Below, one piece after another: positions 1-43,891 of a stretch of DNA of 64,000 nucleotides; within the stretch, counting starts at the first letter, position 1; every line of letters starts with the position of its first letter. The stretch is taken from the NCBI GenBank assembly GCA_051294905.1, contig CM119372.1:24430001-24494000 (forward strand). The letters are read 5' to 3'. A program made the translations under genes and the position numbers. Under the pieces are notes generated by a model that saw only the letters and a program-made list of their open reading frames with translations, did not search any database and was not told the origin of the DNA. The DNA comes from Botryllus schlosseri (Eukaryota).

Positions 1-1383
1 TCAAGCTCTGAGACTTTCTTGCGGTGCCATGTCCAGCACCCCTATATGCGTATTAGAGGCCTCGTGTAACGACATGCCCCTTTTTCTAAGGCACCAATAT
101 CTTTGTCTCAAGTACCGTTCCAAGATCAGAACACAACAATCAAACCCAGCACGCAGTTTATTGGAGGGTTCATGGGAGGAAATGTACAATCTACTCTCGG
201 ACCGATTTGTGACTTTCAATCTCTTATCCCGACTTCAAATATTGGATGATTTGCAAGTCAGAGGTGACCACCCTCTAACCATATGCCCTTGGTTATTGAA
301 ATGCGCTATGATTGATACATCATTACAAACAGCCCTCGGACGCGATCCACCAAGTCACCTTGTCGATGCTATATTCAGAGATTATATTTTTGAGCAATAC
401 CCAAACAGAATGCTAGTTTACACCGATGGATCTAAAAACATCAACGGTGCTGGGTACTCCTTCTACATCCCCGATCGCAATATAAGAACATCAAAAGTAT
501 GTTCGAAACTCCTATCAATCTTCTCGATTGAGCTGAAAGCAATATTCGATGCACTGATATGGATTTCAGAAAATTCCATCGAACGAGTTGCTATTCTGAG
601 TGACTCTTTGAGTGCATTGCTGTCGTTGAAAAACCATCTTGGTGAAAATAACTATATTACCAATCAAATATTAGAACTAACTCACCATCTCTTACATGAA
701 AGCCATAGAGATATTTCTTTCGTATGGATTCCAGGACACTGTGGTATTGAAGGGAACGAAGTCGCTGACCGACTTGCGAAAGAGGCTTCGGCCCATGACT
801 TGGCTGACCAAAGTGTAGATCTTACTTCTAGCGAGGCCAACTCATTGATTTTAGGTCGCTGTAGGCAAGACTGGAACCAACGTTTCATTGAAACCGCCTC
901 TGGAGCACATTTCAAACAGTTCTGCCCTGACATATACACAAAACTACCTACTTTTACCACGCCACGCCGTGCCGAAACCACCATTTTCAGATTACGCACC
1001 GGACACTGTCGTCTCAACTCCCATCTTAACAAAATTGGATGCTCCGATACCCCTGATTGTACCACATGCCATGTAGAAGAAACTGCAGAGCACGTTATTA
1101 TGGAGTGTGCAAAGTACGTTAATGAAAGATGCCAGTTTAGAGCTGCCGTAATGGACCTGAGAGTACCCTTCACCATGGAAAATGTAATAACAAGTGATTA
1201 TATATTACCTTTGCTGTGGGAATTCCTTGCGAAGACAAAAAGACAATACTAAATGTTTAGTTGACTGTATTTACTTATCGCAATATCGATTCGATTAGCA
1301 ACCGTTACGTCGTGACGCAAAAGACCATAGTTGTTATATGCGTCACTAAAATCGCTTTTAAATATAATAATAATAATAATAAT
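1..1383 (+). mobile_element. 3' end of a non-LTR retrotransposon with a short 3' UTR and (TAA)n tail
   Basis: ORF2 stops at 1252. A (TAA)n run follows at about 1365-1383. Confidence 0.88.
2..1252 (+). CDS. 3' part of a LINE ORF2: RT thumb, RNase H and C-terminal CCHC knuckle (RNase H-bearing I-group non-LTR retrotransposon), 5' end outside the window
   Basis: The frame is open from base 2 (QALRLSCGAMSSTP). RNase H motifs: VYTDGSK, ELKAI, SDSLSAL, WIPGHCGIEGNEVADRLAK. These are followed by FRLRTGHCRLN and CTTC-x8-HVIMEC. Confidence 0.93.
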   Translation, partial: QALRLSCGAMSSTPICVLEASCNDMPLFLRHQYLCLKYRSKIRTQQSNPARSLLEGSWEEMYNLLSDRFVTFNLLSRLQILDDLQVRGDHPLTICPWLLKCAMIDTSLQTALGRDPPSHLVDAIFRDYIFEQYPNRMLVYTDGSKNINGAGYSFYIPDRNIRTSKVCSKLLSIFSIELKAIFDALIWISENSIERVAILSDSLSALLSLKNHLGENNYITNQILELTHHLLHESHRDISFVWIPGHCGIEGNEVADRLAKEASAHDLADQSVDLTSSEANSLILGRCRQDWNQRFIETASGAHFKQFCPDIYTKLPTFTTPRRAETTIFRLRTGHCRLNSHLNKIGCSDTPDCTTCHVEETAEHVIMECAKYVNERCQFRAAVMDLRVPFTMENVITSDYILPLLWEFLAKTKRQY

Positions 1384-20920: not shown

Positions 20921-21179
20921 GAGGTGTGTTGAATATATTCGTTCTAGAAAATACCATTGATATATTTTTATGTCTATTAATGGCACATTTACAGTGGCGA
21001 TTATCGCGTTTTTTAGGCTTTGTGCACCACGACACGAATATTTGTAATGTTCCTATGTCTTTGCCTTTCGTAATCTTGAGCACGTCTTTCACGAATTCTA
21101 CAACTCAGACGTCAGTCACTCTCGCTCCCATGCGCCCCCATCGTGGTCTTCGCTGCCGACTTCGCTGCTCACTTTCAGA

Positions 21180-21766
21180 ATAGAAATTAAACATGGAACG
21201 GCAACGACTGATTTTGCAGCTTCGTTCCGCTTCGCTGAGGCTGAAAGGTAGAATAGTTTTGCGTAAGCGACTGTAGGATTTCGGGCAATCCAAAAGCTAT
21301 CTTCCCGAGCGCAGAAATTACTGGATCTGGTCTTGATCAAAAGCTACTGTTGTACCGATTCCGAAAATATAAATTAAAATATGATCAGGCACTGACCCAC
21401 CTAGAATCCGTTCTCCAAGTCTGAAATATCGGCATTGTTCGAACAATCGGAGAGTCGCAACGGGTCATTGTTATGGCCATTGTGTCGCGGTTACCCGATT
21501 GTTCTGAGCAATGCACATTTCAGATGTTGAGGGTGGTTTTTCGTCAAAGACTGGAGCGTGACCATATTTTCATTCATATTTTTGGAATGAGTGCGACAAT
21601 AGCTTTCGATCAAGACCAGATTCAGTAATTTCTGCGCTCTGGAAGATAACTTTTAGATTGCCAGAAATCCTACAGTCGCTTACGCAAAACAATTCTACAC
21701 TCCAGCCTCAGCGAAGCGGAACGAAGCTGCAAAATCGGTCGTTGCCGTTCCATGTTTAATTTCTAT
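21180..21766. mobile_element. Foldback MITE, palindromic over nearly its whole length
   Basis: ATAGAAATTAAACATGGAACGGCAACG is inverted at the other end. Flanks ACTTTCAGA / ACTTTCAGT look like a 9-bp TSD (8/9). Confidence 0.82.
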
Positions 21767-21798
21767 ACTTTCAGTATTGGCTTTTCAATGCATTACGG

Positions 21799-22665: not shown

Positions 22666-25354
22666 CACTATACGGTAGTAGTCAGATCAGCGATGAGGAG
22701 CCTGTTGCTATGTATGAAACGTGTCGAATTATTGTATCGAAATATTGAAACACATATCACGTGGAAGTGTTGTTGTAGATTTGAATTGATTTTCTCGTGT
22801 CTGCTTGGAGGTTGAAGATGAGTGATCGGCATTCTGCGAACCAAAATGACCACAAACAGGGTAGACATAAAGGGTATTATCCCTGTCTCAAGGCAGGTCT
22901 AATGCAATGTCATTCGGCGAAACAATCATGTCAACTGCGTAGTTCATGGACTTTAGATTTCATAAAGTAAAAAGTAGTTTTAGGATATCCTTGCATCGCG
23001 ATTTTGATCGGCCCGCGAACAGTTATCTGTAAATCAGAACATAAAACCTACTTTTGAATGTTAATCCGTGGAATAGGATGATAGGCTGTGTATACGGAAC
23101 CGGACATTCGTTCACTATGCAGCCTGTTTATTTGTTTGTAGCGATTACGTTTAGCCTACGTACGTCATATAAGTGATACAGATTCAAAATACAGCCACTG
23201 TATAGTAAAGTGTGCCGTGACAATTAAAGCAACAATATAAGTCACTGTTTCATATAGTTCCATTCAAACCTTCTTTGTTGCCAGTGTCACATTTACACAC
23301 TTTGTGCTTCAAATTGGTACGTGATACGTTTCCAATTCCTGAATCAAGTCCACCAGGGTTGGAACCGTCCTTTTAGTTTGTGGCGAGCAGGTCACCACGG
23401 AGTATAATTGAGGTCGGTATAATGGCAAAAACACGAAGACAGACATTGGGCTAAAGGAGGACAAATTTCGGAGGCACTGCTAGTTTCCATCAACAACAAA
23501 GCATATTTTACCAAGTTGCACACTGCTCGGGAAGCAGCGACCAAGACAAGCTTTGTAGTATCCTAAATACACGTTATTGTATTAATAAAAAAAGAATCTA
23601 TATGTGGGGGGGGGGTTAAAAAGAGTTTAAAATGTATCATGCGAATAAATATTATTTTTGTTAATTTACCGACACTTTCCCATTGCCTAATATCAGTAAA
23701 TCCATTAAGAACCATGTATTTACATTGTAATTCACTGTTTTCAATTTAGAAATACAATTGAATACGCCACAGAATATAGATTTTTGACTCGGCCCGCCAA
23801 CGAATTTTCTGCTTTGGCCTGCGGGGAAAATTATTGCCCACCCCTGCCTAAAAGTGTGCGATCCCTCGATTTCGATACTACTTTAGTCGAGTACTTCGAG
23901 TACTTTTCTACTTTAGTCGCAACGCAAAGTAAATATACCACCGATGCCACCGATGTGTGTGGCTAAGTCTTTGAGTTCTGCGTTTACGAACTTGAACAAG
24001 ATACGTTTGTTGCTATTACAAATAAAAATGTCAACATTGAAACCAGAATTTCACAGCACATAAGTCATAGGATCGCTTAAATCGTTCGTACATGATACAT
24101 ATCACATATAGAGCCAAACAGTCAGCTCCATGAGTGACATGCGACCAATGACACCAAGGGTAGGCCTGCTCAGAATAACAGTTACTCACTCAACAACGAA
24201 AGAGTCGTAGACCGAGCACCACATATTCTTCCGCGTATCATCAGGAAATCACTCCCGTACCACAGGTTGAGAACCACCGATATTAGAGAATACGCATTAC
24301 CGGCTTGGAATAAGTTTCTGGCTTCATTGTTGCGGATATATCTCTGGAAACGGGCACACACGATTATAGAACCAAATTAAGTTGTACTTTATTATATTTA
24401 CCGAATCATTATGTTCCACTCTCATCCATACTTTGAACAAACACGGAGAATGTGTCACCTTCGCCCGAAAGGAGTCCTGCAATCCTATTGTTCCGTTGGA
24501 CTATGAATGTCAGCCAATGAAACTCACCCGCACATTCCGCAACTTCCTGATCGTATATCTCATATTATATGATGATGTTATGTCAACAGTAAGAAGGAAA
24601 CATCTCGTACAATAAACCAAACATGGCACATGTAGCTATTCTGACATGAAAAAAGTAGATAGGCCTATATAGACGATACTCTGGACTGACGTTTCAATAA
24701 AAGTATGCAAAGCATCTTATTAGACATCCAACTCCATTCTGCCTAGTGGTTTGGATTAAACATACGTAAGTTGCTTCAAAAACGTTCTCACAAATATTGT
24801 GCAGTCGGTGTTTGCGCGCAATTCAATGGGTATGTTATGTTCATCTATCCAGTTCATACATGCACATACTAGAGCAGTGGTTCTTAAACGGTGTTCCATA
24901 CAACACTATGGGCTCCGTGCGCCAGTTTCAGGCGTTTCGCTGGATGTCACTCACTCCACTCAAACATATATGATTTGTGATGATACGCACGTCTTGATCA
25001 TCATAGGCCCGGCCACTAGTCGAAATTTTTATTGTGATTGTGAATGGAGAATCGTGTTGTTTTGATTCGTCGTGTGCAGCGGCGTCCGCAGGGGAGGTTG
25101 CAGTTTGAAATAGATACATTTTCCTGAAATGCCAATTCCATCTCCAATACGGATAAGCTATTTGTAATTAGGCGATTGGTATCGCGCTGTTGCGTTTTGA
25201 CCGAACAATATTATAACACTCGCATTTCTAAACTGGTATCTGAGTGGGAATATCAGAATTGAAACTGATTTGGAATAAATATTCATTAAAATATTTTCGT
25301 TTTGTGTGAAAATTAAAATTTGATGGTGAGGTTCTTTTAACACTCTGCTTATGC

Positions 25355-25691
25355 CACTAGTCAATACACATTTTGGTGCCAATAATAATTCCAAGGTTTT
25401 AGGGTATTTTTATGTCGCTGAATCCAAAAATGTCATTTATTGTTCCGAATTGGCTCTATTTTTCGAGATATTCCATATTTTTTCGAAAAGTGCTGAAAAT
25501 ACTCAAATATTGACATTTAGGTAAAATTATCTTTGTATACTACGGTTTAGGTGTATTCTCATGTCGCTAAATCCAAAAATGACAATAGTTTACCGAATTG
25601 GCTCTAGTTTTTGAGATATTCCGTATTGTTGTTCGAAAAGTGCTACAATTCTCTTTATAGGCCAATACGACGACTTCGATGAGTTAACATC
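25355..25691 (-). mobile_element. Probable end of a Chapaev-like transposon interrupted by the palindromic element
   Basis: Starts CACTAGTCAA and has a duplicated subterminal block (about 25411-25495 and 25561-25645). The transposase remnant resumes at about 40900-41130. Confidence 0.45.
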
Positions 25692-25959
25692 AGTAGTAGA
25701 GAAATGGTGGATATAGCCGCATATCGTCTTTTAACTTAAAGAAACTAAAATCTCTAATAAAATAAAGAAACAAAGGATAACGGACTTACGCATTTTGCAG
25801 AATTGCAGTTCGTGACGGATTGCTGCAAGCGATCTGATCGATATGTGGCTGTTTGATTTCCGTTTGAAATGAGTTTGGTGTAATATTTGTGACGTAATTC
25901 TCGCGGTTGTGGCGTGACTCGTTATTTATGAGTGGATTGATCACTGGTTCTGCCTGTTG

Positions 25960-28030
25960 ATTTCAAAACCCGGCTGACCTATCGTGTCGCGCTTTCTGGA
26001 ATTGAGTAAGGTTGCTATCTGCGTGTCAAAACTCGTTTGCGGTGAATATAATTTTATTATCAGGCGAATAATATCAAGGTTATTGTCTTTGTTGTAATCG
26101 AATCTTTCTGGATCTCTATGGTGTGTACTCCGACGAAACGGAAAAGTTGACGCGGCATGACGCGGCGTGTAATCGTGGGTTGGTTCATCCAATTTCTCTT
26201 GAATGTGATGGGATGAGGGAAAATTTGCCCATTGAACATTACAGCTGTGAAGTAAACGCTCCTCTTGATCCGTATATGAGAGCCTTATGCTATATCTCAA
26301 GTGCACGGTCAAGGCGTTGGGCCAAACGAAACGATGTAAATTCACGCTTGCCGTTTGAACTGGCATACTCTGGTCCGGAACGATAACCGTTCAGCTCCGT
26401 ATTAGAGTGATATATATGTATTCTTGGTATCATTTTCAAGGCTACTTGCAGAATTACGTAACTCACTATCGGGGGATGAACGGATTCCGAAACTAGAAAT
26501 GGTCCTGCCTGGCGATTTAAAACTCGGCTGACCTATCATGTCGATCAATGATTTCCGGTTCAATTGAATACGGCTGCTATCTGCGTATAATCAAAACTCG
26601 TTTATGTTAAATTAAACTCGTTTGAATTTATTATCAGGCGAATATACTCAAGGTTACTGTATTATTTGCTGTAATTTTCCGCGTATGACGATCGAATCTT
26701 TTTGGATCTCTGTAGTGTGTAACCCGACGAAACGGAAAAGCTCGCCTGGCGTGACTCGCCGTGTCAGCGTGTAATGGCGGGTTGATTGATTGATGGGTAT
26801 ATGATGACAATTTATGCTATGTTTCAAGCGTACGGTCAAGGTCACACGAATCGATGTAAAGTCTCGCTTGGTTGGATTCTCGTACTTGGATGGGGTGGGG
26901 GGTGGCTGACTAAGGGGCTACACATCCAAAACTACTTCCGTAACCAAATGTCAGTCAGGCGCAGAGACGAGCGGATATAAAAATTTGGTATTCTGAAACC
27001 ATCTTGCTCCGGCTTATATTTTAAAACTCAACTGGCGTATGATTTCTCTTGAATCTCTCAATCAATAATTCCCGGTTCAATCGAGTGTGAATGCAAGCTG
27101 TCTGTGTGGTGCACGCGTTATCAAATCAAACTCGTTTGTGTCATTGAGTCCATGGTAGGCCTATATCACATTGATATCATTGTAAGCAGACAGTTTTGAG
27201 TAACTATGTGGGATTCTATTGAAAACAGCTTTATTACAAAGAAGCCGAGATAAGTCCATCGCTGTTGCTACTTGCTACCCGCCATTTTCAAGTGGTTTTT
27301 GACGACGTCCAAAGCTACTTCCCGCAGCTTACGACAGTAGAGAGCGAGTGTGCCAGGAGCGAGCCTCGTATACGGTACAAACGAGTGTGGATTTGAATGG
27401 GAAAACAAGGCATTGGGGGATCTTTACTGGATTACTTTTGGATTTAAGTTTATTCGGACCCGGATTTGTGGATTTTACATGCTACTCGCGAAATAATATC
27501 GCGGGCAAGTGATCCCCATGAATCAGCCGTGATCGATCGGGGGTGATGCGATGATGTCAGTCTGGATTCAAAATACTCGTTTGGATTAATCACATCAAAG
27601 TAATCAGTTTTCTTCTGGCTCGTGACTCTTGCATCGATGTGGTTCCTGTATCGAGAACTACGATACTAGATTCCATTGTACGCCGACGAATCGGGGCTCG
27701 TATACTGTACAAATGAGCGTGAATTCGGATGGGAGTACGGCGCATTGGAGTATTTTTACTGGATTACTTTTGGATTTACGTATATCCGGACAAGGATTTT
27801 TTAAATTGTACATGCTACTGGCGAAATAATTGCGCTAGTAAGTGATGGCCATAAATCAGCCGTGATCGATCGAGAGTGATACGATGATGTCAGTCGGGGT
27901 TTAAAATACTCATTTCGATTAATTCCATCAACGTAGTCATCTTCTTCTGACTCGTGACTCTTCCGTCGATGTGGTTCCTGTATTGAGAACTATACGATAC
28001 TCGATTCCATTGTACGCTGACGTATCGGAA
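25960..28030 (+). repeat. Diverged subterminal direct repeats in the palindrome arm (mirrored at about 38250-40320)
   Basis: About 25960-26350 resembles 26513-26870, and about 27400-27695 resembles 27740-28030. All four share a TGTA...GACG.A.CGG motif. Confidence 0.75.
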
Positions 28031-28769
28031 AAGTTCGCCTCGTTTCGTAGGATACTGGGGGAAAGGTTTAATCTCGCTGAATACGAGTTTGGGAATATTT
28101 GGCGTTATATTCGAGTGATAAAAAAACTTATCTCTAGGCAAGTAGACGTACTTGCTGAGTGATTGTAGCCTGCGACCCAAATTCCCATTGTCTCTGTCCA
28201 CAATCGCTTGTGAAGTGGTGTAATGAATCGGTGATCCGAATCCAGCCCGGAATTGCTCCTGCTCCTGGACCCGATCGTAATCACCTCCGCTCAGATGTGA
28301 TCAACCTGTTGACGGATATACAGTCTTGTCGTCATCGTTGTATGTTAAGTTGACGGAATAATACTTGATCATAATGAGCAATCTGTAAGATATACATCTC
28401 AGTAGTACCGTGTTTTCTGTTTCACGGTCATACAAATCGGGTGCAGTTCAGATTAGCAAGAAATCGAGCAGTTTCATTTTCCTGGTACTGAGTTGAGACG
28501 CAATAACTACTGGTCAGGCGTAATCATCTTCCATCTACAAAGGATGTTTCATTTTGGTATGGCTGCATATCAATTGTGTATATAAACTTGTATTTCGGCA
28601 GTCGATGAAGAAAATATGTAACCCGTTTGCTAAATATGTATGTTGTCTATTTTAGGAACACGAGAAGTGAAGTACATCAACAGTTTGATGTCAAAGAAAA
28701 TATTATCCATGACGAAGCGTGAATAATGATTTTACCCGCTGCGTGTCGAAATAGCGTATAGCGTATAGC

Positions 28770-29030
28770 GTATAATAGCGTCGATTCCGCAGCTGCAACA
28801 CCAATGGGTTGCGGGTTCGAGTCCGACTGAGTTCGACTGCAGAATTCTTACCCAAGTGTTCGATGTTTATCTAGGCTCCTATTTTTCATATAATCCGTAC
28901 AAGCGATGCCTTCTAGAAGCTCAGAAGTGGGCAGTGCTACAAGTCGGTATCTACAGGACACAAATGACGTAAATCGTCCTGGTTGAAATGACCGTATTAG
29001 CAGTCTACAAGCACCATGAATATCACAAAC
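28770..29030 (+). mobile_element. tRNA-derived SINE inside the palindrome arm (mirror at about 37250-37510)
   Basis: B-box-like GGGTTCGAGTCC. Related copies at about 57200-57440 and 10880-11000. Confidence 0.65.
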
Positions 29031-29420
29031 AACGAAACAAACTCTACCCGCCATGATATCGACTCCAGCAGGACATATTTTCGATATATTGAGATATGTA
29101 AATTTCATTCTTAATATTTTCAATCTTGCAAGCGAACCATCTTTTAGGGCGGCAATAATACAAGATTTGTCGTTATCGACTAACGCTGTCAAGGGCGATT
29201 TGGTGTATGGAAATGTGAATATTGATTACGACGGTGCGATTTTGGACGGTTCGCCGCGGTAAACGATCCTTGATATCAGGAAACAATCAGGCGCAGTCTG
29301 AAAATATAGTCGAACATTCGTACCCTGCTACAATACCAAGCACAAAGCGTTATTGGAAAAAAAAATGCGATGAAGCGGCGATCGATATGCATCGTACAAA
29401 GACGTAGTAGTAGTCACGCA

Positions 29421-29423
<3 letters not shown>

Positions 29424-29467
<44 letters not shown>
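29424..29467 (+). repeat. (CA)n microsatellite (mirror (TG)n at about 36814-36857)
   Basis: Seen directly. Confidence 0.97.
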
Positions 29468-29470
<3 letters not shown>

Positions 29471-30051
29471 AATACTAGTCAGATTATAGGACCACGAACT
29501 AACATATCGATCCAGTTTTCCGTCCCATGCCACCTCATTTTGTCTCTTTCCTTTCATATTCTCTGCTTTAGTTTTCATTCGGTGTGCATTCCTCTTCTTT
29601 ACTTTACCTATGCCAAGGTGGGTGTGCGATTTCAAAGACTACTCCAAGCTCCAATTCGTTTCGACACCTTCCTGTCTTTCATTGTATCGCAGTTTTGTAG
29701 TGTTTTGAAACGATGAAAATATTAATAAACTAACACTGATACACTAAATTATCCCAAGAACAGCTGCAATACAGAAACGTTTGAGGTCTATATATTTGCG
29801 ATTTTTTATTGCGTGTGAAGATTTAAAAACGACTAGCAGAATAGGTAGGAGAAGACTGGAGGAGCAAGCTCTAGCACATAATAGACATTTCGTCCATCAG
29901 TATTGGTGTTTGTAAGGCAGGGCTAGAATCTGTGTAAAATGAGGAAAATTACTATAATATGAATGCGAGGCATTCAATAGCACCCAAGCAGAGTTCTGAA
30001 AAACGTGAGTTGAACTGGATTGGATCCGAAAATGAACAATGCGCAGTGAGC

Positions 30052-30480
30052 ACAATGACTCGGACTCGAGTCTCAACACCGTGATTCGGAGTTGAATATT
30101 CGAATCCTGAGTTGGACTCGGTGGTGAATGGAAAATGATTCGACTTGACTCGAGTCCTACCGAATGTTGGGATTAAGTCACCATCCTCGAGTCACGAATA
30201 GGGCTAGGCACAATGATTCGTGTACCCGAATCTGAAACGAGTAATATATATAACGATTCTAGTCGAGTAGTAAAAGACGATTTTTTTTTTCGAGTACTGA
30301 AAATATACGCTTCTATCGCCACTAAACGGCAATTTATCAACGAAAGTCATAGGTTCGATACTAGTTTCAAGTGTGGAAGCTGTAAAACTTTGATTGGTCG
30401 TATCGCAGCATACGAAACCTACAGACTACAGTACAATGCTACGAAAGTTACTGAAAATAACAAATCGCTGGTATGCCAGC
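30052..30480. mobile_element. Fragments of two host MITE families inside the palindrome arm
   Basis: A GACTCGAGTC-type piece (tgttgggattaagtcacc) and a TAGGGCTAGGCACAATGATTCG piece similar to 54477-55004. Confidence 0.65.
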
Positions 30481-31917
30481 TAGTTTTATGGCTCTACAGC
30501 ATCACCAGATTCTTATGACTCTATATGGCGGGTGTTTTCAACCCGGATCCAATCATCTGGATAGTAAGTAGCCTATACACAAGTAAGTAACTCCGTCGGT
30601 CGGAAGAAGTAGGCGTATCACGCGATATACTTTTTCGTATCATAGATAATGATATCATGCAAATTCTGCACGAGATGTGTCTTGGAAGTGGCACGTAAAA
30701 CGTTGTTGTCCCCCACCAATATAGCTTCTCTAGATGAGATGTCTTATTCGTTTTGCTATCTGACCCGTTTGTGGAAATCTTCAGCGACAATTATTGTTCT
30801 GGGGATCATTTTCGTTGAGTATTAAAATATGGTCTCTCGCAGAGCGTGACGGTCAACAAATGTATGTCTCAAATATTCAGCGGAAACCGGGGTACATTAT
30901 TGTTCGAGACTCCTATATATGACTTGGAATAAAGCACCGATGCCTTGTCATTCAGAGGCTGCTGTATCGAGAGCGTCCATGGCAGTTGATCGAATAATCA
31001 TGTGAGAAGATGGTCAAATATGATTGTCTACCTATCTATTATGAATATTCTATTTCGGAGTGTTTCCTTGTATATCCCCGAGAGTGACGACATAGAGTCG
31101 ACTATTACTGATCTCGCGATGTGAGAATACAACTCGTGAAAAGAAGCTTGTGATCTGTGATGGATTACAGAATATTCCGATGTCAACGCTGACGTTCTTG
31201 AAAATGGTGTGATTCGTTATAGTTCTGATCTTGTGTGACTACCCCAAACAGTAGATTATCGACTATAAAACGTTTGTGTAGCTATAATTCGTATCCAAGT
31301 TGTTGAACTAAGACATATGACGGTAGAATCGAATGCCATACATAAAAACTTATTCAAATACCTACTAAGAGTGAACATTACAACGTTGAGTCACTTGAAA
31401 AGTTGTCGTGGTAGCGGAATATTGTTTGTGAATCGATATGGTTAGTAACAGTTGGATTGTTCGCACATTTAATGCTATTTATCGATATCGGATCGGCTTA
31501 TGAAATATCAGTGTGAGAACCAAGTGCGTGCCAACTGCCCTTTGTTGATGGAAATAAACACCTGTCTCCCGTATTGCTGTCAGAAAACAATCTGTTTTCA
31601 TGAAATACGCATATTTGCACGCCAAGTCCTGCTAATTTTGTTGCCCGTTCGTTTTTGTATTAACATTAAGTGTGTAGTATCGCTCCTTTGGCGATGGTAA
31701 TTTGGCGGAAAAAGTCAGCACCTAAGATTAAAAAAAATCAACCAGAGAACGAGCTGTTTCTCCGTGACCTTTCAATATTCACCTATGGTTTTGAATTCAC
31801 AGCAAATGACGTTATTGTTGACAATATGTGAATTGCTATCGAAGATTCGTAGTAATGGTTTTGTCTGTTTTTAGGATGATATATTTCTCAAACAGTTTCC
31901 AAAAATGAGAGACTGTT

Positions 31918-33000
31918 ATGGGAAGACACTTCGACCCGGATCCGCCAGTACAGAGATGCGTATATATCGCGTCGGGTTCTCACCGCTCCGAATTATATAG
32001 ACTCGCTACGTTCGCCAGGTTTTCGAGACTGTCGTACGCAAAGCGTGCAGATTTAGCATCTGACGGATATTATTGGCTGGGGTTCGAAGACAAAATTAAA
32101 TGTTTCGGATGCAGTATTTCACTCGAAAAATGGGTTGAAAAGGATACGAATGTAAGTTGTCATGAAGCGAGTTGTGTTCGAGACGTATTCAATATTCCCG
32201 TTGAAAGATCGAATTTCAGGAGTCTATTACGGGAGTTTAAGCTCCAAATCGAGACACCGCAAGTCAATAACAGCGACATAAAACTTGCGAATATCATTGA
32301 CCGAGAACACGCGTGTTTGATTAAGAACCTCGACTTGAAAAGGGAATCGAAGCGACGCGAAACCTTCAAGAAATGGCCTAGCTATCCAATACCCCACGCA
32401 GTAGGCGAGTTGGCGAAACAAGGGTTTTTCTATCTCGGTAACTTAGACAGAACGCAGTGCTTTAGCTGCTTCGGTGTTCTTCGCAATTGGAAACCCATAG
32501 ACGACGTATCGGAAATACACCTTACACATTTTCCAAAATGTACTTTCGCACGTGGTAGCTTTTCAGGAAATATCGCACTAGCTGAGCAAGACCGCGGTAA
32601 TTTGGATGACTTACTTCACGAGAAAATACGACGGCTCACTATCAATGTGAAAGAACCAGATGAGCCATCCGAGGATGAAAAACACTATCTTGCTGAACTA
32701 TTCCCTTGCCTTAACCCCGCGAATCCTGTAATGTCGTCCTTGTCACGAAGAATAGCAACCTTCGACGAAGGTTGGGATCCCGCTAAAATCAATGCTAGCG
32801 TTGAGCAATTAGCAAATGCGGGGTTTTATTACATCGATTCGGACAAGACGAAATGTTTTTACTGCAATGGTGGACTTCGGTGGGACCGGACAGACGAGGT
32901 TTGGACGGAACATGCTAAATGGCCAGTTAGAATGTCCCGTCTAATCCAACTGATAGAAATAGAAGTAGTCCAACACAAGGCACTTGAGTATGTAGTGTAA
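31918..33000 (+). CDS. IAP (BIR-domain) protein, truncated copy: BIR1, BIR2, incomplete BIR3 and an unrelated 25-aa tail
   Basis: Same protein as the minus copy up to EHAKW (32922), then reads spacer sequence. It lacks the last zinc-binding Cys of BIR3. Confidence 0.85.
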   Translation: MGRHFDPDPPVQRCVYIASGSHRSELYRLATFARFSRLSYAKRADLASDGYYWLGFEDKIKCFGCSISLEKWVEKDTNVSCHEASCVRDVFNIPVERSNFRSLLREFKLQIETPQVNNSDIKLANIIDREHACLIKNLDLKRESKRRETFKKWPSYPIPHAVGELAKQGFFYLGNLDRTQCFSCFGVLRNWKPIDDVSEIHLTHFPKCTFARGSFSGNIALAEQDRGNLDDLLHEKIRRLTINVKEPDEPSEDEKHYLAELFPCLNPANPVMSSLSRRIATFDEGWDPAKINASVEQLANAGFYYIDSDKTKCFYCNGGLRWDRTDEVWTEHAKWPVRMSRLIQLIEIEVVQHKALEYVV

Positions 33001-33047
33001 TTAGGTAAAACCTACCACAATTCTGAGAAAAAAATAGAAGTACTTCA

Positions 33048-33172
33048 TGACTGCCACCACTGCGTTCTACGTCAGTCCCACAAGTCTAGAAACAATGCAA
33101 AGATGTCCACATGCTATAGTCATATTCATTTATATTTATTTCACATCGTTTACACGTCACGGCCTCTCCCAT
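33048..33172 (-). pseudogene. Frameshifted RING-finger remnant downstream of the IAP ORF
   Basis: Minus-strand frames give MGEAVTCKRCEININE, then MTIACGHLC, then CF*TCGTDVERSGGSH. Confidence 0.65.
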
Positions 33173-34364
33173 TTTCGATGCAATCCAACGGTGATCCATC
33201 GTTTGATTGACGATTCCGCAGAACATTTTGTCGTTTAGTCAACTCCAACTTCGTGATGGGGTTTCTAATAATCGGACGGTTGAGATTTGGATATGTGTTT
33301 TCGATGCGTCGCCCGAATTCGATACCTTTCATACGAAGTACGTACTCGCATTGCGGAAACCATTTAGCATGTTCCGTCCAAACCTCGTCTGTCCGGTCCC
33401 ACCGAAGTCCACCATTGCAGTAAAAACATTTCGTCTTGTCCGAATCGATGTAATAAAACCCCGCATTTGCTAATTGCTCAACGCTAGCATTGATTTTAGC
33501 GGGATCCCAACCTTCGTCGAAGGTTGCTATTCTTCGTGACAAGGACGACATTACAGGATTCGCAGGGTTAAGGCAAGGGAATAGTTCAGCAAGATAGTGT
33601 TTTTCATCCTCGGATGGCTCATCTGGTTCTTTCACATTGATAGTGAGCCGTCGTATTTTCTCGTGAAGTAAGTCATCCAAATTACCGCGGTCTTGCTCAG
33701 CTAGTGCGATATTTCCTGAAAAGCTACCACGTGCGAAAGTACATTTTGGAAAATGTGTAAGGTGTATTTCCGATACGTCGTCTATGGGTTTCCAATTGCG
33801 AAGAACACCGAAGCAGCTAAAGCACTGCGTTCTGTCTAAGTTACCGAGATAGAAAAACCCTTGTTTCGCCAACTCGCCTACTGCGTGGGGTATTGGATAG
33901 CTAGGCCATTTCTTGAAGGTTTCGCGTCGCTTCGATTCCCTTTTCAAGTCGAGGTTCTTAATCAAACACGCGTGTTCTCGGTCAATGATATTCGCAAGTT
34001 TTATGTCGCTGTTATTGACTTGCGGTGTCTCGATTTGGAGCTTAAACTCCCGTAATAGACTCCTGAAATTCGATCTTTCAACGGGAATATTGAATACGTC
34101 TCGAACACAACTCGCTTCATGACAACTTACATTCGTATCCTTTTCAACCCATTTTTCGAGTGAAATACTGCATCCGAAACATTTAATTTTGTCTTCGAAC
34201 CCCAGCCAATAATATCCGTCAGATGCTAAATCTGCACGCTTTGCGTACGACAGTCTCGAAAACCTGGCGAACGTAGCGAGTCTATATAATTCGGAGCGGT
34301 GAGAACCCGACGCGATATATACGCATCTCTGTACTGGCGGATCCGGGTCGAAGTGTCTTCCCAT
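33150..34364 (-). CDS. Inhibitor of apoptosis protein, three BIR domains, intronless, 404 aa, no intact RING
   Basis: BIR1 RLATF..CFGC..H..C; BIR2 RRETF..GFFY..CFSC..H..FPKC; BIR3 RIATF..AGFYY..CFYCNGGL..EHAKWFPQC. Confidence 0.95.
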   Translation of the reverse strand: MGRHFDPDPPVQRCVYIASGSHRSELYRLATFARFSRLSYAKRADLASDGYYWLGFEDKIKCFGCSISLEKWVEKDTNVSCHEASCVRDVFNIPVERSNFRSLLREFKLQIETPQVNNSDIKLANIIDREHACLIKNLDLKRESKRRETFKKWPSYPIPHAVGELAKQGFFYLGNLDRTQCFSCFGVLRNWKPIDDVSEIHLTHFPKCTFARGSFSGNIALAEQDRGNLDDLLHEKIRRLTINVKEPDEPSEDEKHYLAELFPCLNPANPVMSSLSRRIATFDEGWDPAKINASVEQLANAGFYYIDSDKTKCFYCNGGLRWDRTDEVWTEHAKWFPQCEYVLRMKGIEFGRRIENTYPNLNRPIIRNPITKLELTKRQNVLRNRQSNDGSPLDCIENGRGRDV

Positions 34365-36810
34365 AACAGTCTCTCATTTTTGGAAACTGTTTGAGAAATA
34401 TATCATCCTAAAAACAGACAAAACCATTACTACGAATCTTCGATAGCAATTCACATATTGTCAACAATAACGTCATTTGCTGTGAATTCAAAACCATAGG
34501 TGAATATTGAAAGGTCACGGAGAAACAGCTCGTTCTCTGGTTGATTTTTTTTAATCTTAGGTGCTGACTTTTTCCGCCAAATTACCATCGCCAAAGGAGC
34601 GATACTACACACTTAATGTTAATACAAAAACGAACGGGCAACAAAATTAGCAGGACTTGGCGTGCAAATATGCGTATTTCATGAAAACAGATTGTTTTCT
34701 GACAGCAATACGGGAGACAGGTGTTTATTTCCATCAACAAAGGGCAGTTGGCACGCACTTGGTTCTCACACTGATATTTCATAAGCCGATCCGATATCGA
34801 TAAATAGCATTAAATGTGCGAACAATCCAACTGTTACTAACCATATCGATTCACAAACAATATTCCGCTACCACGACAACTTTTCAAGTGACTCAACGTT
34901 GTAATGTTCACTCTTAGTAGGTATTTGAATAAGTTTTTATGTATGGCATTCGATTCTACCGTCATATGTCTTAGTTCAACAACTTGGATACGAATTATAG
35001 CTACACAAACGTTTTATAGTCGATAATCTACTGTTTGGGGTAGTCACACAAGATCAGAACTATAACGAATCACACCATTTTCAAGAACGTCAGCGTTGAC
35101 ATCGGAATATTCTGTAATCCATCACAGATCACAAGCTTCTTTTCACGAGTTGTATTCTCACATCGCGAGATCAGTAATAGTCGACTCTATGTCGTCACTC
35201 TCGGGGATATACAAGGAAACACTCCGAAATAGAATATTCATAATAGATAGGTAGACAATCATATTTGACCATCTTCTCACATGATTATTCGATCAACTGC
35301 CATGGACGCTCTCGATACAGCAGCCTCTGAATGACAAGGCATCGGTGCTTTATTCCAAGTCATATATAGGAGTCTCGAACAATAATGTACCCCGGTTTCC
35401 GCTGAATATTTGAGACATACATTTGTTGACCGTCACGCTCTGCGAGAGACCATATTTTAATACTCAACGAAAATGATCCCCAGAACAATAATTGTCGCTG
35501 AAGATTTCCACAAACGGGTCAGATAGCAAAACGAATAAGACATCTCATCTAGAGAAGCTATATTGGTGGGGGACAACAACGTTTTACGTGCCACTTCCAA
35601 GACACATCTCGTGCAGAATTTGCATGATATCATTATCTATGATACGAAAAAGTATATCGCGTGATACGCCTACTTCTTCCGACCGACGGAGTTACTTACT
35701 TGTGTATAGGCTACTTACTATCCAGATGATTGGATCCGGGTTGAAAACACCCGCCATATAGAGTCATAAGAATCTGGTGATGCTGTAGAGCCATAAAACT
35801 AGCTGGCATACCAGCGATTTGTTATTTTCAGTAACTTTCGTAGCATTGTACTGTAGTCTGTAGGTTTCGTATGCTGCGATACGACCAATCAAAGTTTTAC
35901 AGCTTCCACACTTGAAACTAGTATCGAACCTATGACTTTCGTTGATAAATTGCCGTTTAGTGGCGATAGAAGCGTATATTTTCAGTACTCGAAAAAAAAA
36001 TCGTCTTTTACTACTCGACTAGAATCGTTATATATATTACTCGTTTCAGATTCGGGTACACGAATCATTGTGCCTAGCCCTATTCGTGACTCGAGGATGG
36101 TGACTTAATCCCAACATTCGGTAGGACTCGAGTCAAGTCGAATCATTTTCCATTCACCACCGAGTCCAACTCAGGATTCGAATATTCAACTCCGAATCAC
36201 GGTGTTGAGACTCGAGTCCGAGTCATTGTGCTCACTGCGCATTGTTCATTTTCGGATCCAATCCAGTTCAACTCACGTTTTTCAGAACTCTGCTTGGGTG
36301 CTATTGAATGCCTCGCATTCATATTATAGTAATTTTCCTCATTTTACACAGATTCTAGCCCTGCCTTACAAACACCAATACTGATGGACGAAATGTCTAT
36401 TATGTGCTAGAGCTTGCTCCTCCAGTCTTCTCCTACCTATTCTGCTAGTCGTTTTTAAATCTTCACACGCAATAAAAAATCGCAAATATATAGACCTCAA
36501 ACGTTTCTGTATTGCAGCTGTTCTTGGGATAATTTAGTGTATCAGTGTTAGTTTATTAATATTTTCATCGTTTCAAAACACTACAAAACTGCGATACAAT
36601 GAAAGACAGGAAGGTGTCGAAACGAATTGGAGCTTGGAGTAGTCTTTGAAATCGCACACCCACCTTGGCATAGGTAAAGTAAAGAAGAGGAATGCACACC
36701 GAATGAAAACTAAAGCAGAGAATATGAAAGGAAAGAGACAAAATGAGGTGGCATGGGACGGAAAACTGGATCGATATGTTAGTTCGTGGTCCTATAATCT
36801 GACTAGTATT

Positions 36811-36858
<48 letters not shown>

Positions 36859-39800
36859 GTGCGTGACTACTACTACGTCTTTGTACGATGCATATCGATC
36901 GCCGCTTCATCGCATTTTTTTTCCAATAACGCTTTGTGCTTGGTATTGTAGCAGGGTACGAATGTTCGACTATATTTTCAGACTGCGCCTGATTGTTTCC
37001 TGATATCAAGGATCGTTTACCGCGGCGAACCGTCCAAAATCGCACCGTCGTAATCAATATTCACATTTCCATACACCAAATCGCCCTTGACAGCGTTAGT
37101 CGATAACGACAAATCTTGTATTATTGCCGCCCTAAAAGATGGTTCGCTTGCAAGATTGAAAATATTAAGAATGAAATTTACATATCTCAATATATCGAAA
37201 ATATGTCCTGCTGGAGTCGATATCATGGCGGGTAGAGTTTGTTTCGTTGTTTGTGATATTCATGGTGCTTGTAGACTGCTAATACGGTCATTTCAACCAG
37301 GACGATTTACGTCATTTGTGTCCTGTAGATACCGACTTGTAGCACTGCCCACTTCTGAGCTTCTAGAAGGCATCGCTTGTACGGATTATATGAAAAATAG
37401 GAGCCTAGATAAACATCGAACACTTGGGTAAGAATTCTGCAGTCGAACTCAGTCGGACTCGAACCCGCAACCCATTGGTGTTGCAGCTGCGGAATCGACG
37501 CTATTATACGCTATACGCTATACGCTATTTCGACACGCAGCGGGTAAAATCATTATTCACGCTTCGTCATGGATAATATTTTCTTTGACATCAAACTGTT
37601 GATGTACTTCACTTCTCGTGTTCCTAAAATAGACAACATACATATTTAGCAAACGGGTTACATATTTTCTTCATCGACTGCCGAAATACAAGTTTATATA
37701 CACAATTGATATGCAGCCATACCAAAATGAAACATCCTTTGTAGATGGAAGATGATTACGCCTGACCAGTAGTTATTGCGTCTCAACTCAGTACCAGGAA
37801 AATGAAACTGCTCGATTTCTTGCTAATCTGAACTGCACCCGATTTGTATGACCGTGAAACAGAAAACACGGTACTACTGAGATGTATATCTTACAGATTG
37901 CTCATTATGATCAAGTATTATTCCGTCAACTTAACATACAACGATGACGACAAGACTGTATATCCGTCAACAGGTTGATCACATCTGAGCGGAGGTGATT
38001 ACGATCGGGTCCAGGAGCAGGAGCAATTCCGGGCTGGATTCGGATCACCGATTCATTACACCACTTCACAAGCGATTGTGGACAGAGACAATGGGAATTT
38101 GGGTCGCAGGCTACAATCACTCAGCAAGTACGTCTACTTGCCTAGAGATAAGTTTTTTTATCACTCGAATATAACGCCAAATATTCCCAAACTCGTATTC
38201 AGCGAGATTAAACCTTTCCCCCAGTATCCTACGAAACGAGGCGAACTTTTCCGATACGTCAGCGTACAATGGAATCGAGTATCGTATAGTTCTCAATACA
38301 GGAACCACATCGACGGAAGAGTCACGAGTCAGAAGAAGATGACTACGTTGATGGAATTAATCGAAATGAGTATTTTAAACCCCGACTGACATCATCGTAT
38401 CACTCTCGATCGATCACGGCTGATTTATGGCCATCACTTACTAGCGCAATTATTTCGCCAGTAGCATGTACAATTTAAAAAATCCTTGTCCGGATATACG
38501 TAAATCCAAAAGTAATCCAGTAAAAATACTCCAATGCGCCGTACTCCCATCCGAATTCACGCTCATTTGTACAGTATACGAGCCCCGATTCGTCGGCGTA
38601 CAATGGAATCTAGTATCGTAGTTCTCGATACAGGAACCACATCGATGCAAGAGTCACGAGCCAGAAGAAAACTGATTACTTTGATGTGATTAATCCAAAC
38701 GAGTATTTTGAATCCAGACTGACATCATCGCATCACCCCCGATCGATCACGGCTGATTCATGGGGATCACTTGCCCGCGATATTATTTCGCGAGTAGCAT
38801 GTAAAATCCACAAATCCGGGTCCGAATAAACTTAAATCCAAAAGTAATCCAGTAAAGATCCCCCAATGCCTTGTTTTCCCATTCAAATCCACACTCGTTT
38901 GTACCGTATACGAGGCTCGCTCCTGGCACACTCGCTCTCTACTGTCGTAAGCTGCGGGAAGTAGCTTTGGACGTCGTCAAAAACCACTTGAAAATGGCGG
39001 GTAGCAAGTAGCAACAGCGATGGACTTATCTCGGCTTCTTTGTAATAAAGCTGTTTTCAATAGAATCCCACATAGTTACTCAAAACTGTCTGCTTACAAT
39101 GATATCAATGTGATATAGGCCTACCATGGACTCAATGACACAAACGAGTTTGATTTGATAACGCGTGCACCACACAGACAGCTTGCATTCACACTCGATT
39201 GAACCGGGAATTATTGATTGAGAGATTCAAGAGAAATCATACGCCAGTTGAGTTTTAAAATATAAGCCGGAGCAAGATGGTTTCAGAATACCAAATTTTT
39301 ATATCCGCTCGTCTCTGCGCCTGACTGACATTTGGTTACGGAAGTAGTTTTGGATGTGTAGCCCCTTAGTCAGCCACCCCCCACCCCATCCAAGTACGAG
39401 AATCCAACCAAGCGAGACTTTACATCGATTCGTGTGACCTTGACCGTACGCTTGAAACATAGCATAAATTGTCATCATATACCCATCAATCAATCAACCC
39501 GCCATTACACGCTGACACGGCGAGTCACGCCAGGCGAGCTTTTCCGTTTCGTCGGGTTACACACTACAGAGATCCAAAAAGATTCGATCGTCATACGCGG
39601 AAAATTACAGCAAATAATACAGTAACCTTGAGTATATTCGCCTGATAATAAATTCAAACGAGTTTAATTTAACATAAACGAGTTTTGATTATACGCAGAT
39701 AGCAGCCGTATTCAATTGAACCGGAAATCATTGATCGACATGATAGGTCAGCCGAGTTTTAAATCGCCAGGCAGGACCATTTCTAGTTTCGGAATCCGTT

Positions 39801-40587
39801 CATCCCCCGATAGTGAGTTACGTAATTCTGCAAGTAGCCTTGAAAATGATACCAAGAATACATATATATCACTCTAATACGGAGCTGAACGGTTATCGTT
39901 CCGGACCAGAGTATGCCAGTTCAAACGGCAAGCGTGAATTTACATCGTTTCGTTTGGCCCAACGCCTTGACCGTGCACTTGAGATATAGCATAAGGCTCT
40001 CATATACGGATCAAGAGGAGCGTTTACTTCACAGCTGTAATGTTCAATGGGCAAATTTTCCCTCATCCCATCACATTCAAGAGAAATTGGATGAACCAAC
40101 CCACGATTACACGCCGCGTCATGCCGCGTCAACTTTTCCGTTTCGTCGGAGTACACACCATAGAGATCCAGAAAGATTCGATTACAACAAAGACAATAAC
40201 CTTGATATTATTCGCCTGATAATAAAATTATATTCACCGCAAACGAGTTTTGACACGCAGATAGCAACCTTACTCAATTCCAGAAAGCGCGACACGATAG
40301 GTCAGCCGGGTTTTGAAATCAACAGGCAGAACCAGTGATCAATCCACTCATAAATAACGAGTCACGCCACAACCGCGAGAATTACGTCACAAATATTACA
40401 CCAAACTCATTTCAAACGGAAATCAAACAGCCACATATCGATCAGATCGCTTGCAGCAATCCGTCACGAACTGCAATTCTGCAAAATGCGTAAGTCCGTT
40501 ATCCTTTGTTTCTTTATTTTATTAGAGATTTTAGTTTCTTTAAGTTAAAAGACGATATGCGGCTATATCCACCATTTCTCTACTACT
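33360..40587 (-). repeat. Right arm (7228 bp) of the giant inverted repeat
   Basis: Differences I saw: three 1-nt homopolymer indels and one substitution (C32718 vs A33564). Confidence 0.97.
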
Positions 40588-40899
40588 AACATCTGTCTTT
40601 TCAAGTGTGTGCATGCAGTATTCTTCATTTCTTGATGCGATTTCGTTAAAGACGCAATCGTTAACACAGAGAGCCATACGCGAATCCTGTTTCATGTGTA
40701 AATCAAGCAAAAATTATAAAAATTAGGCGATATCAGCATTAAACAACTAATTTTTGTACTGCAAAAACAGGAGACGTCAAAGCACAAACACTAATTTTAG
40801 TAACACTCAAAGTTCATTTAGTAAGCTGCCGAAACAGGCTGATTAATCATATACCTGTACTGTAATAAAATAATTAATCATTGTTTATAAATTTTCTTT

Positions 40900-43471: not shown

Positions 43472-43891
43472 TAGTGGGGCGGTTCAGCCCAAATATTCAG
43501 AAGGATTGTGCATTTTGTGATACAAGCACCAAATTTGGCACACATGTATATTAACATGTTGCGAACATTTTCAGATATTGAGCCACTCGGAATTCTCTCT
43601 TTATGTCCGCCATATTGGATTTCAAAATGGCCGCCATTTGAAATCTACATTTGCGATTATCTCTGGGCCTAATGCTGCTAAAATGAAGTCAATAGTAGCA
43701 TTTGACCCAGACATAATCGCAAATGTAGATTTCAAATGGCGGCCATTTTGAAATCCAATATGGCGGACATAAAGAGAGAATTCTGAGTGGCTCAATATCT
43801 GAAAATGTTCGCAACATGTTAATATACATGTGTGCCAAATTTGGTGCTTGTGTCACAAAATGCACAATAGGTTTGCTATGCTGCCCCACTA
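43472..43891. mobile_element. Hairpin MITE in the last intron of the MINPP1-like gene
   Basis: TAGTGGGGC / GCCCCACTA ends. Inverted arms at about 43505-43685 and 43692-43867. Confidence 0.85.

Follow-up and report, generated by a model that had tools for sequence, protein, structure and literature searches.

The two IAP genes that face each other in this 64,000-nt stretch of Botryllus schlosseri DNA (the window below) probably form the inner arm ends of a palindromic element with Maverick-type ends. The element likely relies on a helper Maverick to be copied and inserted, and a one-arm deletion between two 25-nt repeats likely clipped its plus-strand IAP copy. We place the probability of this reading at roughly 60%. 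New in this analysis are the repeat pair at the joints, a frameshifted RING that is common to several samples, and limits on the hairpin that the locus could form. If real, the locus is a Maverick-type element cut down to two mirrored 7-kb arms, with a host-derived apoptosis inhibitor as its sole recognisable gene. It would offer a concrete route by which IAPs spread in an ascidian, and would hint that virus-like elements of this kind profit when cell death is blocked.

Architecture of the palindrome

The IAP pair lies at the centre of a 14,896-bp palindrome (~14.9 kb), which has the following features.

25686..25691: left copy of the 6-bp target-site duplication AACATC, directly outside the left end
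25692..25697, plus strand: left end motif, (AGT)2
25692..32922, plus strand: left arm, 7231 nt
27365..28028, mirrored at 38251-38914: tandem repeat, two copies of 332 nt at 83%
28786..29011: fragment of a high-copy host repeat, in both arms, 73% to DNA outside the element
30194..30465: fragment of a high-copy host repeat, in both arms, 76-79% to two copies outside the element
32718 (C), partner 33564 (A): sole substitution between the arms, silent, third base of Pro267
33360..40587, minus strand: right arm, 7228 nt
40582..40587, plus strand: right end motif, (ACT)2
40588..40593: right copy of AACATC, directly outside the right end

An earlier note on this DNA had described two convergent IAP copies with about 1 kb of complementary coding sequence around a 437-nt loop. 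Both points hold: the open reading frames 31918-33000 (plus strand) and 33150-34364 (minus strand) face each other, and 1005 nt are complementary (31918-32922 versus 33360-34364), with the loop at 32923-33359. The note had also described identical upstream regions pointing inward. The identity is correct, but its extent was underestimated, since the match does not stop at about 1 kb plus upstream sequence but runs for 7231 nt to the AGTAGT/ACTACT ends. Across 7231 aligned nt the arms are 99.945% identical, the flanks outside them are unrelated, and the inverted repeat makes up 97% of the element. The arms differ by three one-base indels, in A, T and CA runs, and by one substitution, the C32718/A33564 difference that had already been singled out; it is indeed the only one.

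Mavericks are marked by 5'-(AGT)2//(ACT)2-3' ends, or by (AG)3//(CT)3, together with a perfect 6-bp target duplication (PMC8097293, in part). The element described here has this end motif, a perfect 6-bp match of AACATC (composition-based chance 3e-4) and terminal inverted repeats, which as 7231-nt arms are far longer than usual. A six-frame Pfam scan of one arm plus the loop (25692-33359, stops read as X) gave BIR and, overlapping it, zf-C3HC as the sole matches; of the core genes for protein-primed PolB, integrase, ATPase, protease and capsid, none was detectable by Pfam in these frames, and the longest other stop-to-stop frame was 149 aa. Judged by its sequence, the element would work like a non-autonomous Maverick, an autonomous one being ruled out by the missing core genes. 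Searches for RNA genes gave no tRNA by ARAGORN and a single sub-threshold Rfam match, to SCARNA7, which lies on the CA repeat and which we read as chance.

Reads or contigs from four of 24 runs (X1, X3, X8 and X24) were compared with 25200-33359. In X1 the summed contig depth over the repeat at 28786..29011 was ~30,000, versus a few hundred in adjacent arm bins. The host repeat fragments and the 332-nt tandem repeat occur mirrored, so the mirroring of the arms is younger than these nested repeats.

Several further observations were made in the arms and the neighbouring DNA. A 149-aa open frame on the minus strand (25941-26390) has a diverged second copy ~550 nt further in (about 26500-26900). 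It found support in neither Pfam nor the ESM Atlas; searches of the Atlas with the arm frames 25944-26390 and 28851-29225 gave no usable match, only low-recognition ones. An (AGT)3-like internal run beside a CA microsatellite (29405-29467, mirror near 36814-36875) is possibly the end of a nested element. At 28786-28830 a repeat of very high copy number begins; its loose ends, as found in other runs, look tRNA-like, so it is a possible SINE fragment. Elsewhere in the window, a 407-aa open reading frame (29-1252, plus strand) with RNase H and zf-RVT domains is the tail of a non-LTR retroelement, and two small foldback elements lie at 43505-43868 (176-nt arms at 97%, 12-nt loop) and 21177-21769 (214-nt arms at 90%).

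The IAP copies and their relatives

The gene pair at the inner arm ends comprises the following.

31859..31874, plus strand: pyrimidine tract with a terminal AG, 43 nt upstream of the ATG, resembling a splice acceptor and a candidate for one (cis or trans)
31918..33000, plus strand: clipped IAP copy, 360 aa, identical through residue 335, then 25 residues from loop antisense
33094..33166, minus strand: RING-finger remnants (a CxxC piece and a CGHL piece) in two frames outside the open reading frame, with order and spacing as in relatives
33150..34364, minus strand: long IAP copy, 404 aa, intronless over the aligned part, with three BIR repeats and no in-frame RING

The plus-strand copy had been said to stop matching at EHAKW and to lose the fourth zinc ligand of BIR3, and this was borne out: divergence begins at residue 336, and Cys339, the fourth BIR3 ligand, is absent together with the two helices after it. 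These helices (340-346 and 348-357) are confident in an AlphaFold model of the long copy built on a 30-row alignment (mean pLDDT 81.7). Pfam recognised three BIR stretches in each copy. The canonical BIR motif is CX2CX16HX6C, and the ligand spacings of the long copy are 2/16/3 in BIR1, 2/16/6 in BIR2 and 2/15/6 in BIR3. The suggestion that the locus makes one 3-BIR and one 2-BIR protein is therefore too clean, as canonical spacing is found in BIR2 alone, in either copy.

A C-terminal RING pattern was present in 104 of 120 relatives, but the long copy lacks the in-frame RING of BIR-RING E3 ligase IAPs, with a stop at 33150. An HMM built from these 104 sequences matched the RING remnants over its positions 9-17 (E 0.02) and 24-33 (E 0.0009). 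Compared with its relatives, the long copy also lacks the N-terminal extension and retains little of the linker that follows BIR3. With a frameshifted RING and non-canonical spacing in BIR1 and BIR3, the long copy appears worn. These features are not assembly errors, because contigs from three of the runs match them without gaps: X3 against 32061-32922 (five differences), X8 against 32983-33359 (no differences) and X1 against 33054-33246 (one difference).

The closest relatives were IAPs of the ascidian Styela clava, with 40-45% BLASTP identity. In a quick tree of 43 rows (the query and 42 relatives hand-picked from the 120), the query fell on a long branch (1.33) in a clade with support of 98 that holds four Styela IAPs and one unnamed protein. 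The captured gene thus appears to be of ascidian affinity, and its placement points to a host that is probably a styelid-like ascidian. It shares three BIR repeats and clade membership with the BIRC7/XIAP-like proteins P0001-P0003 and P0005 of S. clava, but differs from them in having ~30-60 fewer N-terminal residues, shorter linkers, the RING out of frame, a 3-residue gap before the last BIR1 cysteine and a 1-residue gap in BIR3. A scan of IMG/VR found four distant two-BIR IAP loci (27-32%) and a scan of JGI found 18 IAP loci (33-47%). None of these 22 loci carried DNA similar to the arm beyond a 38-nt stretch of BIR3, and one of them contained an unrelated 291-nt inverted repeat. In the tree, the Endozoicomonas BIR-RING proteins P0012 and P0096 sat among ascidian IAPs, outside the clade of the query, possibly through transfer from host to symbiont.

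The loop and its joints

Between the arms lie a single-copy loop and, at one side of it, the clipped joint.

32923..33359, minus strand: single-copy loop, 437 nt, with the BIR3 end, linker, stop, RING remnants and 3' flank of the long copy
32898..32947: clipped joint 32922/32923, a zero-loop imperfect palindrome (20/25, 18/22)

Along the gene strand, the arm and the loop finish in similar 25-mers, which agree at 20 of 25 positions; the one in the arm covers the WTEHAKW codons of BIR3. When 2.97 million pairs of arm and loop 25-mers were compared, this direct repeat came out on top, its two copies ending precisely at 33360 and 32923. Among 63,940 window positions, 32922 was the best zero-loop palindrome centre (18/22), while the opposite, intact joint scored only 1/22. 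By a rough estimate, so good a repeat (18/22) has a small chance, 5e-4 over 7 kb, of lying next to a fixed centre. The repeat pair at both joints suggests that homology drove a rearrangement, most likely the loss of part of one arm from a fully palindromic precursor, by which BIR3 would have been clipped. Any priming model would need a mirror of the 25-mer after 32923 in the precursor, and its simplest source would be a palindromic precursor centred there. For yeast amplicons it has been proposed that one arm loses the sequence between a repeat located at the inversion junction and another repeat farther away (PMC4689423, in part), and inverted duplications are described as usually arising via fold-back, with a single-copy spacer and short inverted homology (PMC3907307, in part). 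Neither a precursor with a zero-loop centre nor a linear parent was seen in the window or among the records listed for the four runs. We also considered that the BIR3 repeat had been copied by snap-back as the joint formed, but rejected this because five mismatches in 25 are too many for an event so young. If the element is real, the joint preserves, in the 20/25 repeat at both loop ends, a readable trace of how such palindromes gain loops.

The intact joint (32922 to 33359, on opposite strands) was recovered from X3 at a depth of 20.9 and from X8 at a depth of 7.2, with contigs unbroken and unbranched there; one X24 read also covered it, and it was absent among the X1 records listed. No bridging record was found for the clipped joint or for either insertion joint among those listed for the four runs, in which contigs show presence and not absence. 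The clipped joint may thus be young or private. As it was unseen among the records listed for other samples, the reality of the palindrome rests on the target duplication and the termini rather than on independent reads. Related arm and IAP sequence was present in several variants in all four runs, in short pieces whose ends were unseen. The copies listed in these samples are 0-2% or more from the window, whereas the arms differ from each other by 0.05%; the symmetry is thus younger than the spread of the family, or is actively kept. Neither X1 nor X3 looks like the source, since both differ from the window at 32146 in all of their depth. Furthermore, the depth of the loop was not half that of the arm in X1, X3 or X8, so the related copies there do not look like the palindrome in the window. 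The flank at 25472-25691 was barely covered in these three runs and no empty site was recovered. The host haplotype at this position may be absent from them or divergent.

The preferred reading implies a series of events. A Maverick lineage would have acquired an ascidian IAP, which then lost its N-terminal extension, most of the linker between BIR3 and RING, and the RING. Fold-back 3' of the gene would have produced a palindrome with one whole IAP in each arm and its centre at the present 32923. Slippage or recombination between the BIR3 repeat and its central look-alike may then have removed 437 nt from the left arm, opening a stabilising loop and cutting BIR3, and helper enzymes would have inserted the element recently. 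The long copy would now encode a RING-less IAP that relies mainly on BIR2, and the plus-strand copy a junk-tailed protein together with a loop-antisense transcript, whose stem of ~100 bp could as a side effect dampen the element's own IAP.

Hairpin potential, rival explanations and known systems

Whether transcripts from the two copies could pair depends on where they end.

33135..33140, minus strand: AATAAA, candidate polyadenylation signal, 9 nt past the stop of the long copy and ~210 nt before the opposite arm
33452..33457, plus strand: first AATAAA for a plus-strand transcript, 93 nt into the right arm

A minus-strand transcript that ends 20 nt past the signal at 33140-33135 is predicted to form a helix of 10 bp at most; a further canonical signal on this strand lies at 32830. 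For the plus-strand copy the loop offers neither AATAAA nor ATTAAA, only weak AATAGA hexamers, followed by AGTAAA at 33419 and the AATAAA at 33452, after which a transcript is predicted to form an unbroken helix of 116 bp. A hairpin of 1 kb would therefore need read-through beyond the AATAAA signals. The earlier note had envisaged such read-through and a long hairpin: read-through RNA would fold, but it is mobile-element architecture, rather than a gene dedicated to hairpins, that accounts for the symmetry.

The RNA reads come from other samples, which may differ in architecture at this locus. We analyzed 22.2 million records of X24, ~3% of a single-cell run (mean length 59.0, longest 90), which we take to come from a 3'-tag library whose second mates are sense. 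No reads fell in the bins at 32000-32815, a region that such a library would sample poorly. In the bin 33088-33359 there were ~7 reads sense to the long copy and ~2 antisense, and in the bin 32816-33087, below the minus-strand signal, ~3 were likely sense to the long copy and ~4 antisense. A contig of X8, which is RNA by guess only, reaches 32983, past the first AATAAA, and depth arithmetic confirmed that its coverage ends there. These ~3 reads and this contig extend past the first minus-strand AATAAA, which is thus not an absolute stop. Elsewhere in the arm, X24 showed one-sided read peaks at 26288-26831 and 27648-27919 (depth 25-35 versus under 1), from copies ~90-95% like the arm. They may reflect transcripts or internal priming in sister elements, and no protein family was found there. 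Hairpin RNA may arise from the locus as a side effect.

Four other explanations were weighed. The foremost, unlikely though credible, is an origin in one step, in which a short natural palindrome 3' of the IAP in a linear, Maverick-derived parent folded back and the right half was primed on the BIR3 look-alike 437 nt upstream, so that the loop is the fold-back loop and no palindromic precursor existed. Inverted duplications around a single-copy spacer normally arise by fold-back (PMC3907307, in part), a linear parent would give the unbranched intact joint of X3 and X8 and the lack of a 2:1 ratio of arm to loop depth, and fold-back directly at a short palindrome that was already there accounts for the joint no less well than deletion does, the 5e-4 applying to a repeat beside a fixed centre. 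However, the one-step origin requires by coincidence both that a natural palindrome was present and that it resembled BIR3, whereas the deletion model gets the mirror half free. In-vitro template switches also favour short homologies, which counts towards an assembly or library artefact, a fold-back chimera at the central joint or over the whole palindrome. The near-perfect arms, the indels confined to A, T and CA runs, and the lack of any outside record across the clipped joint among those listed fit an artefact, yet we regard it as quite improbable: unlike in a fold-back read, the flanks differ on the left and right while carrying a perfect 6-bp duplication and matching end motifs, and the arms are separated by one real-looking substitution. 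The least likely of these explanations is that a host IAP was captured by a foldback transposon from a different superfamily that also makes 6-bp duplications, and whose ends resemble those of Mavericks by chance. This would account for the lack of any Maverick coding remnant, and the end motif is only 6-8 nt long, but the 15-kb length and the IAP cargo fit Mavericks or adintoviruses, as do the end motif and the 6-bp duplication. A plain tandem duplication of host DNA was rejected, as it leaves the termini and the target duplication unexplained.

The remaining explanation concerns function, namely that the locus was selected as a source of hairpin or antisense RNA, with read-through dsRNA being diced or edited and silencing related IAPs. 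In line with it, identical promoters face inward, the plus-strand copy has its predicted 116-bp stem and no canonical signal in the loop, the few X24 reads in the loop bins have both orientations, the X8 contig reaches past the first signal, and fly hairpin loci that silence selfish genes exist (PMC10317233, in part). Nonetheless, the symmetry continues for 6.2 kb past the gene to the transposon ends, the clipped joint was not seen among the records listed for other samples, canonical signals stand at 33140 and 32830 on the minus strand and at 33452 on the plus strand, X24 depth over the gene end was at most 2.3 versus 25-35 elsewhere in the arm, and host IAPs share 45% protein identity or less in comparisons confined to different species. 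We consider selection for such a hairpin very unlikely. A role of the locus in RNA silencing is possible, and the clipped copy is likely a by-product of deletion at the palindrome centre and not a purpose-built RNA-silencing hairpin. A more elaborate version of the preferred reading, which we hold to be rather improbable, is a palindromic, helper-dependent Maverick satellite that spreads a RING-less ascidian IAP, and in which the palindrome was stabilised by a central deletion at microhomology that also turned one IAP copy into a source of antisense or hairpin RNA. If it were true, centre deletions would be a general way for such satellites to gain loops, and the host or the element would obtain a built-in silencer of the whole mobile IAP family.

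Among the papers listed in the literature searches, no description of a wholly palindromic, non-autonomous Maverick/Polinton with an IAP was found, nor of one among ascidian Polintons. Kapitonov and Jurka in 2006 (and Repbase) reportedly named non-autonomous zebrafish Polintons with long inverted ends, which could lower the novelty.

Several known systems share parts of this architecture. As in the Drosophila hairpin-RNA loci, there is inverted, gene-derived sequence capable of forming dsRNA, but siRNAs and targets were shown there, while the inversion here is transposon architecture (PMC10317233 and PMC10292708, both in part). The fold-back inverted duplications of PMC3907307 (in part) likewise consist of two inverted copies that flank a single-copy spacer and have homologous sequence where they join; theirs lie at broken chromosome ends with homology of 2-8 bp or ~300 bp, whereas here an insertion is flanked by a target duplication and the repeat is 20/25. 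In the yeast SUL1 amplicons, a junction repeat and a distal repeat also bound the missing part of an arm and leave a loop, although those amplicons are chromosomal with a loop of several kb, in contrast to a mobile element with a 437-nt loop and a precursor that we infer (PMC4689423, in part).

With the (AGT)2//(ACT)2 Mavericks/Polintons, the element has in common the end motif, the 6-bp duplication, the inverted ends and intronless cargo (PMC8097293, in part). It is similar in size to the anole Maverick (14.9 kb versus 17.5 kb), which has an inverted repeat of 584 bp in place of arms of 7.2 kb (PMC3014272, in part). It departs from Mavericks in that no conserved open reading frame was detected and its sole gene is an IAP doubled head-on. 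IAP homologues occur in adintoviruses, whose accessory IAP and Bcl2 homologues likewise place an anti-apoptotic gene on a Maverick-type element; compared with those IAPs, the one described here is the only recognisable gene of its element, nests with ascidian host IAPs, carries a defective RING and, in one arm, is clipped (PMC8502044, in part).
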